UHGV virus genome: UHGV-1514873
Length of the DNA: 60,731 bases
Origin: a virus
Reading direction: 5' to 3' (one strand)
Shown: one piece after another, positions 20,694 to 60,240 of the stretch
Numbering within the stretch: position 1 is the stretch's first letter
How the letters are laid out: each line of letters begins with the position of its first letter
Made by a program: the position numbers and the translations under genes
Notes under the pieces: model-generated
What the model saw: only the letters and a program-made list of their open reading frames with translations
Database searches by the model: none
What the model was told of the DNA's origin: nothing

Positions 20694-20741
20694 ATTCGTA
20701 ATGCGAAGGTCGTAGGTTCGACTCCTATTATCGGCACCATT
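20694..20741 (+). repeat. att core: 3' 48 nt of tRNA-Thr (thrW-like), copy 1
   Basis: attcgtaatgcgaaggtcgtaggttcgactcctattatcggcaccatt; 5' half of tRNA absent; identical copy at 60193-60240. Confidence 0.85.
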
Positions 20742-20753
20742 TAAATCAATAAG

Positions 20754-21917
20754 TTACACATCATTAGTACCTTCCTTATTTTTTGACTGGGACAAATTTG
20801 GGACCGATGGGTTCAGGATCGAGTCTATTTGCCGTGCGTGTTCGGTAAGGTGATTAGGTGCAAGGTGAGCATATCGACGAACCATTTCGATAGACTCCCA
20901 GCCTCCCATTTCCTGTAACACTGACAACGGGACTCCGGCTTGAACCAGCCAACTTGCCCAGGTGTGTCTCAAGTCGTGAAATCTGAAATCATCAATACCA
21001 GCCCGTCTCAGCGCCGCTTTCCAGGCTGTGTTTGCGTCATACCGCATCTTCCTTACTGTTGGCGCTTTCGTTCCGTCTGGTTTGGTACAGCTTTCCTTGT
21101 ACACAAATACCCAACGGTGATGATTCCCGATTTGTTTTTTCAATACGCGACATGCAGTATCATTCAGCGCAACGCCAATTGCGCGGTTTGATTTACTCTC
21201 TTCCGGGTTTATCCATGCCACCCGGCGCTGCATATCTATTTGTTGCCATTCAAGGTTGATGATGTTCGAGCGTCTTAAGCCTGTTGCCAGTGCAAATTCA
21301 ACAACAGACTTTAATGGCTCCGGACATTCATCAATCAGCCTTTGTGCTTCATGGGGCTCCAGCCAGCGGATCCGTTTATTCTTTGGTTGAGGCACTTTAA
21401 TAATTGGTGCCTTATCCAGCATTTTCCATTCACGCTCTGCGGCTCTTAGTAGGGCCTTTATAAATGAAAGATGCGTAGCCTTCGTTGCAACGGACGCTGG
21501 TTTTGGCGTGTATTCTGGAACAGGTTTCCCTTTTTTTCTGCATGCTTCTGCCCTGAGTTTCCAGTTTTCCTCATGACGCCGGTTCGTCATTTTCTGCATT
21601 GCTGAATAAATTTTTGATTCAGTAATGTCTCTTAGTTGCATTCCTGCGAAATGTTGAAGCCAGAATCCGATCCGGCTTTTGTCATCGTCCAGTGATTTTT
21701 TATGTGCTTTCTCTTCAAGCCACCTGACACACGCTTCCTCGAACGTTATATCAGGTATTTCACCAAGTTTGCTGACCCGCCATGCTTCAGCCTTTAGCTT
21801 GTCATGGAGTTCTGTCGCCTGCCTTTTGTCCTTTGTTCCAAGAGACTGTTTAAATCTTTTACCGTTCGGCAATGTGAAACTGGCGTACCATATTTCACCT
21901 CTGCGGAAGAGTGACAT
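20754..21917 (-). CDS. int: tyrosine integrase, P22 Int-like
   Basis: 387 aa, near-identical to P22 integrase as recalled ([46 protein letters not shown]...). Confidence 0.95.
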
Positions 21918-22144
21918 TTTCTTTCCTCTGTTATGCCATCACCCGCGCTCACCTGGACAGTATGCAGCGGAGACTGAAGAGCCGCAATGCAGGCTTGTCG
22001 TGTTGTGAGGTAAGGAGATTTATTCTTAGTGGGATCTTTGCGTGTTGCCTGAAGACGCCCTGTGCGTATCCAGTTAATGGCAGTCGGTCTGGATATCTTG
22101 AGAAAATGACAGGCCTCATCGAGTGTGAGGCTGTATGGCTCCAT
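21794..22144 (-). CDS. xis: excisionase, P22 Xis-like
   Basis: [38 protein letters not shown]... matches P22 Xis; internal ATG at 22144 chosen over the longer ORF. Confidence 0.85.
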
Positions 22145-22449
22145 TATTTCACCTCTTGCTGTGACATTGTTGAGAAATGGATACCAGCTCGTTGCTGCCA
22201 GACGATCCAACCGAGAGTCATATCCCATGCCATGTATTCGTTATCGCCGTTTTTTGCTCTCCGACGATCTACTAAGTCACCAAAACGCTTTTCCATGAAT
22301 AATTCATAAGCTTCGCGTTCATCTGGTTCTACTTCCAGAGATAGGAGTGCGATTTCATAAGCACGGCGCTCAATATCGTCTCGCACGTCAAGGCTGCTGA
22401 TACGCTCTTTAATTTCTTTAATCAGTTCTTTGTCGGTAAAAGTGGTCAT
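22144..22449 (-). CDS. hypothetical early protein
   Basis: 101-aa ORF translationally coupled to neighbours. Confidence 0.5.
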   Translation of the reverse strand: MTTFTDKELIKEIKERISSLDVRDDIERRAYEIALLSLEVEPDEREAYELFMEKRFGDLVDRRRAKNGDNEYMAWDMTLGWIVWQQRAGIHFSTMSQQEVK

Positions 22450-22811
22450 TATGCTCCAGCCTCCGGTGCTTTTGGCATTACTGCCCAGTGAGTGATATTG
22501 ACGTTTTCAAGGTCCCCGATCTGAAATGTCCACTGCCATTCTCCGGTTTCTTTTTGTCCCCAGGTGTACCAGAGAGAACGCCAGCCAATTAGCCAGCCTT
22601 CTCCGTTAGCATCGAATAACAAAACACTTTCATTTGCTGGTGGCAGTTCAGTTGACACTGGTATTACTTTGTTTTCCTGTGCTGCACATTTAGCTTCAAG
22701 CGCATCGAATTTACGCACCAGGTATTCAGCATCCGTTTCATTCACTTTCAGATCTCGCGGTACACATCTCCCACGAAGAAACCCTTCCATTTCGAAAACA
22801 TTCATGCGCAT
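22449..22811 (-). CDS. DUF551-like prophage protein
   Basis: 120-aa W-rich C-terminus typical of a common enterobacterial prophage family. Confidence 0.5.
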   Translation of the reverse strand: MRMNVFEMEGFLRGRCVPRDLKVNETDAEYLVRKFDALEAKCAAQENKVIPVSTELPPANESVLLFDANGEGWLIGWRSLWYTWGQKETGEWQWTFQIGDLENVNITHWAVMPKAPEAGA

Positions 22812-57245: not shown

Positions 57246-58706
57246 CTAAATATTAAATGGAAGCCACCCTTTTTTCTCTGATAGTTTTATTATCACCAAA
57301 CCATTTATTTCAGTTATCGAATCTGGATTCGGCCAGGAAGGTAAACTCTTCACAATTGGATAAATCTTCTCTATTTGTTCTTTATTTGCTGGTTTGCAAT
57401 TACAGATTCCATAGTAATTCATAAATGCAACCATCCTAAAATAGTTGCCACCATCCCACCAAAAAAAAGATTTTCCAAAAGTGTCTGCGCTCATGGAGAG
57501 CATATTCCCTGAGTCGTTTGAACCATGTATATATATGTATTTTCCGTTAAGGGAAATGCCTTTTGTTTGAGATATATATGATATTTCTTTAGCTAAAGAG
57601 ATATCTTTCTGTCTTGCAAGAGTATCATTCAAAAATAGATTTTTGGATATTGAAACGCTATTAAATATAATAAATAAAAAAAACATGTAGTTTAGGTGTT
57701 TTATCGAGTGAAAATTGCTTAAGCAAGAAAACAAAATTACTGCTACTATTGGCATTAAAACAAACAGGCGAGGTGGCGCCCCTGAGCCAACAACAACGAT
57801 AAATATAACCGGAAGTATATAAATAAAAATGATTGATGAAATCAAATAAATTGATTTTGTTTTTAATTTATATATTAGGGTGAATATCAGAACTAATAAA
57901 GGAATCAGTAACCACTTGTATAAGTTTAAACCAGTAGGAGGGTTGTTATAGAAGTTATATATATTATCTATGGCTGATTTAACAAGCCATTTAATATCGC
58001 TTGCATTTTGTATGTAATTTGAGATGTACTCGTTCGATTCAAGCGAAAAATAATGCTTGATAGCTTTGGTTAATAGCAGGTAAATTAAGGTGGATAAAGC
58101 TATGAGGGATAGAGATAAACATGAACTATAAAAAGACTCACGAATATTTTTCTCTTTTCGTATTATCGAATTTACCTGCAACCCAATGACGAATGCAATA
58201 ATATATGTTACGAATGTTTGGTAGATTGCCATTGAAAGAATGGACAGTACTATACCAGAAAATATCACAATCCTATTTTTTTGCGAGTGAAAAATAATTG
58301 CTGATATCGCTGCCAGTAGAAAAGCAATTCCCACCGTATCAGCTTGGTTAAGAAACTCTAATTGATAGGATATCTGAGGAAAGGTAATAAATACTAACAT
58401 ACCTATCAATAATTCATAAGATTCTAGCTTTAGCGATCTGCAGATTATAAATGCTGAAGTGATGATAAAAAATAAAGCTACTAATGGTGTTATATAAAGT
58501 GAAAAAGGCTCAGGGAGAAAATAATGTCGCAAAAAAGTGTGAAACCACCGTCCAAGCGTGATTGTTTGATAAAAATTATTTGTAAACTCGCCATCAATAT
58601 TAAGTGTTCCATCGTACAACCACCCCCAATAACAATAAATTGATATTGCAAAACATGATATGAAGGCAAGGAGATTTGAATTTTTAAATAAATTAATTTT
58701 AATCAT
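57246..58706 (-). CDS. serotype-specific O-antigen glucosyltransferase (GtrC-type)
   Basis: 486-aa polytopic membrane protein directly downstream of gtrB. Confidence 0.75.
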
Positions 58707-59632
58707 GGGTTACCTCGATGAGATTTTTTTATGATGTATTTAGGTCTATTTTTTACTTCAATATATATTCTGCCTATATATTCTCCGAGAACACCAATCC
58801 CGATCAGTTGCACGCCACCCAAGAAAAGTATTGATACGAGCAAGGAGGGATACCCGCGTACTGGGTTACCAAATACAAGGGTGTCTATAATCATCCAAGC
58901 ACCATATAAAAATGAAATGCTTGCAACAAACAAGCCTATATAAGTCCATACGCGAAGAGGAAAGGTTGAAAAACTTGTGATACCTTCCAGTGCCAGATTC
59001 CATAATTTCCAGCCATTAAATTTTGAGATGCCAGCAACACGCTCTGCGCGTACATATTCAACGACATCCGTCTGACCACCCACCCAGCTCAGTATGCCTT
59101 TCATGAAAAGATTGCGCTCAGGCAACAGTTTAATGTTCTCCACAACCTCACGAGACATGAGTCGAAAATCTCCGACATTTTCCTCGATCTTTGGGGTGCT
59201 TATTTTGTTGTGTAATTTATAGAACCACTCAGCTGTCTTACGTTTCAGTCGTCCATCAGTTGATCGGTCTGAACGTTTAGCAAGCACCATGTCAGCACCT
59301 GCCTGCCACTTTTCAATAAGATGAGGGATAACCTCAATTGGGTCTTGCAGGTCGACATCAATAGGAATTACAGCATCGCCGCTTGCATGGTCTAACCCTG
59401 CAAATAAGGCTGGTTCTTTACCAAAGTTGCGTGTAAATGACAGCGGAACAACTAGCGGGTCTGAAACAGCCAGCGCGTTAATAATTGACTCTGTGGCATC
59501 TTTACTTCCGTCATTTATGAATACAATTTCTACTTCATATGGCTTCAACTCTTGGAATTCACGTACCGTTTTATAGAAAACAGGTATCGCTTCTTCTTCA
59601 TTGAAGACAGGAACGACAAGAGATATTTTCAT
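58703..59632 (-). CDS. gtrB: bactoprenol glucosyltransferase GtrB
   Basis: GT2 N-terminal domain ([11 protein letters not shown]...DGSKD...DVDLQDP) with C-terminal TM helices. Confidence 0.9.
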
Positions 59633-59991
59633 TTCGCATCCCTAAAGACAATGAACTTTGAATAGACGAAACCGCACACCAGACTGATGGCGGAGAAGGT
59701 GATAAGAGTGACTATTGGAGGAAGTGAGCATTTATCAGCTGCCCAACCAACAATCACACTCAATATTCCCATAAATCCCACGTATAACATGTAGCGCATC
59801 GCTGTAGTCGATGCTTTGAATGTGAATCTTGCATTCGCGAAGAAGCTAAAGCTCACAGCCACTACGAAACCTGTGAAGTTTGCCAGAGCCTGACTGGTAT
59901 GTGCGGCATAGATACATACACCAAAAACCACCCAGTGTATAAGTGTGTTCAGCACACCTATAGATGTGTACTTTACAAATAACTTTAACAT
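59629..59991 (-). CDS. gtrA: GtrA flippase
   Basis: 120-aa four-TM protein preceding gtrB. Confidence 0.85.
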
Positions 59992-60192
59992 TTATTTAAT
60001 CAATGAGCTCTGAAAGGCATGAAGTCTATCATCCAAGTCTCAATTGATCGATACTTGCTATGTCTGATGAGACAAAACTGAGACACATAAGGCCTCACAA
60101 TGGCTTGCAAGGCTTTACATGTTTTTATGTGGTGGGACGTGTGAGCGCAGTGTTGATGGGATAATACTTTGAATTACAAGCGGATTCTTATA

Positions 60193-60240
60193 ATTCGTAA
60201 TGCGAAGGTCGTAGGTTCGACTCCTATTATCGGCACCATT
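60193..60240 (+). repeat. att core: 3' 48 nt of tRNA-Thr (thrW-like), copy 2
   Basis: Identical to 20694-20741; flanking sequence differs on both sides. Confidence 0.85.

Follow-up and report, generated by a model that had tools for sequence, protein, structure and literature searches.

How does a P22-like phage of the CUS-3 kind, with a K1 endosialidase tailspike and the polysialic acid O-acetyltransferase gene neuO, come to end at a fragment of the threonine tRNA gene thrW and directly adjoin a second, SfV-like prophage, given that CUS-3 itself lies at argW? The question is raised by the virus genome UHGV-1514873, whose 60,731 nucleotides (nt), here called the window, hold the late half of the first prophage (prophage A) and the whole of the second (prophage B), separated and followed by two copies of one attachment (att) core. 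We favor the reading, with a probability of roughly 90%, that the window represents the right two-thirds of a multi-element array stacked at thrW, downstream of proA, by site-specific integration; the left part of prophage A, with its early genes, int, and thrW, falls outside the window. The main units are listed below.

1-20693, plus strand: right-hand ~20.7 kb of prophage A, running from lysis and packaging genes through virion genes, tailspike, and neuO to the P arm of an attP
20694-20741, plus strand: att core copy 1, a hybrid prophage-prophage junction P(A)-core-P'(B), serving as attR of A and attL of B together
20742-60192, plus strand: prophage B, 39,451 bp between the cores, a serotype-converting phage of the SfV/SfII family
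60193-60240, plus strand: att core copy 2, attR of prophage B and edge of the vat island

The 48-nt core sequence ATTCGTAATGCGAAGGTCGTAGGTTCGACTCCTATTATCGGCACCATT occurs exactly twice in a repeat and sequence search of the whole window, both times on the plus strand and with 0 mismatches, and 100 dinucleotide shuffles gave no chance match to it. Its nucleotides 1 to 46 equal positions 31 to 76 of tRNA-Thr (thrW) in both copies (46/46; the reference was the annotated 76-nt tRNA-Thr of Escherichia coli E1), and its final two bases (TT) fall beyond the tRNA gene. The 30 nt upstream of the copies agree with the 5' half of the tRNA at 9/30 positions (left) and 6/30 positions (right), ARAGORN found no tRNA over the whole window, and a search of the left copy for a hidden tRNA with ARAGORN and Rfam returned only an RF00005 match at 20668-20736 that stays below threshold (15.7 bits against a gathering score of 29). 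Because the 5' half is unmatched and neither program detects a tRNA, both copies are 3' fragments of thrW and not tRNA genes. The initial annotation had described the two repeats in these terms, including their identity, their thrW origin, and the missing 5' half, and had read the left copy as also the right junction of the P22-like element; each of these points held on reanalysis.

The sequences flanking the cores tell the two copies apart.

20520-20693, plus strand: P arm of an HK75-type thrW attP, with which prophage A terminates on the right; the annotated attP regions of HK75, HK446, and mEpX2 match it at 97.9% identity
20754-21917, minus strand: integrase of prophage B, 387 aa (Pfam Phage_integrase, 3.2e-48)
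59992-60192, plus strand: P arm of an SfV-type attP, with which prophage B terminates on the right; over the 70 nt adjoining the core, it follows the left flank of the SfV attP almost base for base

Both copies were typed by direct comparison of their arms with the attP regions of SfV, HK75, and P22. The left copy consists of an HK75-type P arm, the core, and an SfV-type P' arm (the 40 nt to its right), and the right copy consists of an SfV-type P arm, the core, and the flank of the vat island. The HK75-type and SfV-type P' arms are alike only for the 17 nt directly after the core, and the integrase beside the left copy shares 98.4% identity with SfV Int, against 89.9% with P22 Int and 56% with HK75 Int. 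The left copy thus joins the P arm of one phage to the P' arm of another around a shared core, as a junction between two prophages does. Both arms of this hybrid occur together in none of 50,697 phage records, each of which has either P arm and core or core, P' arm, and int; the same type of hybrid join is present in 48 of 5,426 complete E. coli genomes, and the junction at the right copy was found in 7 complete genomes. The 97.9% match of 20520-20757 to the HK75-type attP had suggested that the left copy is an intact attP of the adjacent integrase; this was rejected because the P' arms diverge 17 nt past the core and the adjacent integrase is of the SfV type. The sub-threshold RF00005 match takes in the core and, before it, the final 26 nt of the HK75-type P arm; this stretch (20668-20693) looks like a degenerate pseudo-5' half of a tRNA, perhaps a relic of how the HK75-type attP arose.

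Each of the two prophages is found singly at the same locus in other strains. In the poultry isolate E1, the order is proB, proA, intact tRNA-Thr, an integrase 99.2% identical to HK75 Int, xis, P22-like early and late genes, tailspike, neuO, P arm, core, P4 remnant, a MarR gene, and vat; its thrW-integrated prophage aligns with window positions 5-20744 in a single unbroken alignment at 99.75% identity, so that E1 corresponds, on alignment, to the window minus prophage B. In SCU-124, the order is proB, proA, intact tRNA-Thr, the same integrase as in B, prophage B, an acyltransferase gene, gtrII/B/A, core, P4 remnant, and vat; the identity of this SfII-like prophage to the window begins exactly at 20694, and SCU-124 can likewise be described as the window minus prophage A. 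Since the identity to E1 runs from 5 to 20744 and that to SCU-124 starts at 20694, A and B overlap on the core alone. E1, elppa4, 81EVA, and SCU-124 all have an intact tRNA on the side nearest int, and in the first three of these, proA and the intact tRNA-Thr are followed by an integrase 99.2 to 99.5% identical to HK75 Int. The initial annotation had expected an intact thrW outside the window, probably to the left of the P22-like element, and these three relatives show that arrangement. The double configuration also occurs elsewhere: 81EVA carries an intact thrW, a P22-like phage, a hybrid junction, and an SfV-type phage.

In the mechanism that we propose, the 46-nt attP core of each phage, which equals the 3' end of thrW, would be recombined with the tRNA gene by a tyrosine integrase, restoring the tRNA on the side of int and leaving behind a 3' fragment on the other. 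If a second phage shares this core, it would then enter a core copy of the first lysogen, giving rise to the hybrid P(A)-core-P'(B) junction. The complete array would read proA, intact thrW, prophage A (from an HK75-type int to tailspike, neuO, and P arm), core, prophage B (from an SfV-type int to gtrII, gtrB, gtrA, and P arm), core, and the vat island, whose P4-like integrase is dead. If B were excised precisely, the junction of E1 would re-form, and the loss of A in the same way would restore that of SCU-124; the natural occurrence of both junctions fits the model, which is not to be taken as proof of excision activity.

Several points weigh against this reading or limit it. The window ends ~20 kb short of the predicted thrW and integrase of A, so its left end is reconstructed from relatives only; the exact junction of neuO, core, and SfV-type int was found in none of the 5,426 complete genomes (at least 80% cover of 19400-22000); and the two cores, being identical, give no clue to which phage integrated first.

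With regard to that order, the likeliest history is that the vat island came first and was followed by B, giving an SCU-124-like state, and that A then entered the regenerated thrW at the attL of B. This order is favored by an experimental precedent, in which SfI integrates at the attL of a resident SfX, so that the two lie in tandem at thrW with proA on one side and the downstream flank on the other (PMC3306764), and by SCU-124, in which B abuts the same vat-island flank. The array resembles the SfI and SfX tandem lysogen in having two thrW-core phages head to tail with an att site at each junction; it differs in that a P22-like podovirus occupies the upstream position, its integrase sharing only 56% identity with that of the downstream phage, and in that a third, degraded island follows. 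The same array could also have been built in the opposite order, from an E1-like lysogen that gained B second, with the attP of B recombining into the attR core of A and not into an intact tRNA. The starting state is found in E1, where A is 99.75% identical and the right flank is the same, and A directly adjoins other elements in many assemblies; however, the sole experimental case has the newcomer entering at attL with its regenerated tRNA (PMC3306764), the configuration with B beside the same flank exists too, and the identical cores do not discriminate between the two. We therefore regard the opposite order as tenable, although clearly the less probable of the two.

That the junction is an artefact, either a mis-join of two contigs across the repeat at 20694-20741 or an assembly duplication, is highly improbable. 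Nothing found speaks for such an error beyond the absence of the exact junction from the complete-genome collection; the two copies have four different flanks, each matching a natural att arm, the repeat is shorter than ordinary reads, the 48 closed genomes contain the same type of hybrid join, and the window's join of neuO, P arm, core, and SfV-type int recurs in L021, a metagenome scaffold assembled independently. Least credible of all is a single composite phage with P22-like late genes and an int-proximal early region, for which the left copy would be an intact attP: the succession of tailspike, conversion gene, att, and int is indeed the normal attP layout of P22-like phages, but the arms are of different types and together occur in none of the deposited phages, the DNA right of the core is a complete prophage in its own right, of the myovirus type, that brings its packaging, head, and tail genes and a matching P arm ending at 60192, and the single-lysogen forms of E1 and SCU-124 exist.

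Further arrangements at thrW were seen in the course of the comparison. In E. coli 81EVA (NZ_CP138397; L006:39313), a third junction has the reverse order, an SfV-type P arm preceding the core and an HK75-type P' arm coming after it, and a partial integrase and IS3 lie beyond; because of this junction, thrW arrays can be at least three deep, in either order. In the blood isolate elppa4, the thrW form of the neuO phage is followed by an intact P4-like satellite, and on other contigs with the identical tailspike (L013, L015, and L022; L014, L017, and L018), two different intact P4-like satellites follow it, one with a 404-aa integrase, AlpA, and a D5-type primase, the other with a 396-aa integrase, Psu, and Ogr/Delta. 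Stacking of phage plus satellite at thrW appears to be recurrent. GCA_017047135.1 (L019:14430 onward) matches the window through the core and ~170 nt of the integrase gene of B, to 20912, and then continues into unrelated DNA with an AbiE pair; this join looks like the deletion remnant of a former A-B array.

The second part of the question concerns the relation of prophage A to CUS-3. Its late half encodes a terminase, a P22-type portal and coat, ejection proteins, and the two products listed here.

16504-19449, plus strand: endosialidase tailspike (K1 capsule depolymerase), with the Pfam domains Head_binding, End_N_terminal, End_beta_propel (8e-233), End_beta_barrel, End_tail_spike, and Peptidase_S74
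19603-20316, plus strand: neuO, polysialic acid O-acetyltransferase, with a Hexapep domain; homology to CUS-3 extends to 20537

Compared with deposited phages, window positions 1-20760 are a mosaic (CUS-3, 54% coverage at 98.2% identity; HK620, 58% at 96.3%). Prophage A shares with CUS-3 of E. coli K1 RS218 (CP000711) the P22-like virion module with its endosialidase tailspike, and tailspike, neuO with its AAGACTC tract, and the downstream DNA as far as 20537 are 98 to 100% identical. The exact tailspike protein occurs on many contigs. The neuO gene contains 9 AAGACTC heptads at 19608-19670 (19 copies in the CUS-3 reference record), and its reading frame is open from the ATG; by the rule that the heptad count must be divisible by 3 (PMC13001214), it is predicted to be phase-ON. 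The homology to CUS-3 breaks off at 20537, which in the CUS-3 record lies just beyond the stop codon of the integrase gene. In CUS-3, the order is attL core (16 nt), int, neuO, and tailspike, with int between neuO and the core, and its 16-nt core sits within tRNA-Arg beside yfdC, which is the argW locus by the GenBank record and a genome context; it has been assigned to the KplE1/IntS argW module (PMC2951348; PMC9659370). The integrase of CUS-3 shows no BLASTP similarity to the thrW integrases. An IntS-type integrase or argW module was sought in the window and is absent, the HK75-type P arm and thrW core standing in its place. Prophage A thus has the endosialidase and P22-like virion and the phase-variable neuO of CUS-3 in the strict sense and lacks the argW module; since canonical CUS-3 uses an unrelated argW/IntS module, A is, as judged from its att arm, a module-swapped relative of CUS-3. 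The initial annotation had placed CUS-3 at argW and suspected a distinct integration module or a relative, and both suppositions are borne out.

The module attached to A is that of HK75, HK446, mEpX2, and mEp213 (a "CP4-6 type" attP), to which 20520-20693 is 97 to 98% identical. These phages are lambdoid siphoviruses, whereas in A the module is joined to a P22-like K1 phage. The HK75-type P arm also terminates the neuO prophage in E1 and elppa4, and in E1 this phage has, at its left end, an integrase with 99.2% identity to HK75 Int. HK75 Int itself shares only 56% identity with P22 and SfV Int; the missing integrase of A should accordingly be of the HK75 type and not of the P22 type. The closed genome CP057192 carries an identical A segment. 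Toward the left end of the window, a 99-aa open reading frame (ORF) at 130-429 has no database record, and the 161-aa GIY-YIG protein and 470-aa terminase of A are common to thousands of unrelated P22-like prophages. Among the complete genomes with this neuO segment (n = 115), it is joined to the HK75-type arm and thrW core in 5. The remaining neuO matches listed break at 20537, and the break point of the argW form was confirmed in PA45B. Nine of the 10 contigs with an identical tailspike among the matches listed have the thrW form, a proportion that is not an estimate of frequency.

Prophage B had been described as a complete SfV-like prophage, which stands as to completeness and family; its late and gtr half is, by alignment, closer to SfII than to SfV. 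Its gene set comprises int, an xis-like gene, repressor, replication, Q, lysis, terminase, portal, capsid, sheath, tape measure, baseplate, and fibre genes, and gtrA/B/II; two features near its ends are listed here.

21794-22228, minus strand: excisionase-like protein (Pfam HTH_17), at the position of xis in SfV
57246-59991, minus strand: O-antigen glucosylation cassette, consisting of gtrII (57246-58706), gtrB (58703-59632), and gtrA (59629-59991)

The products of the cassette contain the Pfam domains Glucos_trans_II, Glycos_transf_2, and GtrA_DPMS_TM, and the cassette lies beside the attP on the side opposite int and xis, as is characteristic of the SfV/SfII family. Window positions 36000-60192 match phage SfII at 88% coverage and 97.8% identity, gtrII included; an HK97-like head and Mu-like contractile tail set homologous to that of SfII/SfV is present according to this match and to the annotated prophage of SCU-124, with which B shares 97 to 98% identity in blocks. 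Given the SfV-type integrase, the SfV-type P' and P arms, and the SfII-like late half, B is a genuine member of the SfV/SfII family, flanked on its two sides by the halves of its own attP. It resembles the Shigella flexneri phages SfII, SfV, SfI, and SfIV in both attP arms and core, the SfV-like Int, the gtr cassette by attP, and the SfII-like late region; it differs from them in its host, an E. coli with a vat island, in the mosaic character of its immunity, replication, and Q-lysis moron regions, and in an extra acyltransferase_3 gene adjoining the gtr genes.

This acyltransferase_3 gene is located at 55473-56522, beside the cassette at 57246-59632. In SCU-124, ISSfl9 lies between it and the gtr genes, and gtrB and gtrII are frameshifted; the window has no insertion sequence there, and its gtrB and gtrII are open. 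A divergent gene pair (31665-34410), located between the Q antiterminator (31258-31650) and the lysis genes, may be a restriction-modification pair: a 339-aa ORF at 31665-32684 (minus strand) has no Pfam, NCBIfam, or PADLOC match, and an N6/N4 DNA methyltransferase is encoded at 33358-34410 (PADLOC MTase_II, 1.6e-152). The 2.85-kb methyltransferase block is present in 83 of the 5,426 complete E. coli genomes and absent from the SCU-124 and 81EVA versions of B; a search of B for defence genes or other unusual cargo found only this common methyltransferase moron. About six 15-nt iterons (TCAAAATCTGACCCG-like) at 26923-27045, within an HTH_36 replication-initiator-like gene (26635-27576), are probably the replication origin of B.

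Beyond the second core, the window enters the vat island.

60393-60731, plus strand: truncated P4-like integrase, 112 aa, with its stop codon at 60729-60731 and Arm-DNA-bind_3 as its only Pfam domain

A P4-family integrase had been reported to follow the right copy. The N-terminal Arm-DNA-binding domain supports this assignment (PF13356, 7.6e-23); however, the C-terminal catalytic domain of a tyrosine recombinase is absent, the product is a remnant of 112 aa, and RefSeq annotates the same gene in E1 and SCU-124 as a pseudogene lacking its C terminus, intact P4-like relatives of 396 to 404 aa being found elsewhere. The remnant is followed by vat in SCU-124 and by a MarR gene and then vat in E1. 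Window positions 60193-60731 are 99.8% identical to the edge of the vat island in E1, and 60241-60731 are 99.8% identical to the edge of the vat-carrying island in E1 and SCU-124, of which just the first 490 nt lie inside the window. From its domain content and flank, 60393-60731 is a dead P4-like integrase that belongs to the vat island. A vat pathogenicity island at thrW has been described previously (Parreira and Gyles 2003, as cited in PMC7545054).

The A-B array is real, well explained, and ordinary, and its kind of arrangement is already documented. Module exchange among P22-like phages is established (PMC2629481), as is thrW as an integration hot spot (PMC7545054). The neuO sites named in the main text of PMC9659370 are argW and pgl-bioA, and its supplementary Table S9 (2022) places neuO at "thrW-paoD" or "thrW-ecpE" in elppa4, RHB33-C14, and 18MD05VL07; this table aside, no paper in the literature searched mentions neuO and thrW together in its text. 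A further idea, which we consider unlikely, is that the hybrid site, together with two integrases only 56% identical that share one core, could allow cross-reactions such as excision of one phage by the Int/Xis of the other, joint excision, and exchange of att arms, and that tandem thrW arrays serve as a workshop in which modules are swapped between podoviruses and myoviruses; if true, this would explain the presence of a siphovirus-type (HK75) module on a CUS-3-type K1 phage.

Otherwise the array is a textbook example of polylysogeny at a tRNA hot spot and of the mosaic exchange of modules. What it adds is that one locus unites two surface-modifying conversion systems, the phase-variable O-acetylation of the K1 capsule (neuO) and the glucosylation of the O antigen (gtrA/B/II) with an acyltransferase, next to the vat toxin island of extraintestinal-type E. 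coli, and that neuO is carried on at least two integration modules that are unrelated to each other, the argW/IntS and the thrW/HK75-type module. Because neuO also travels on the latter, a minority of strains will escape typing schemes and regulatory models in which it is placed at argW, ~40 kb from dsdC.

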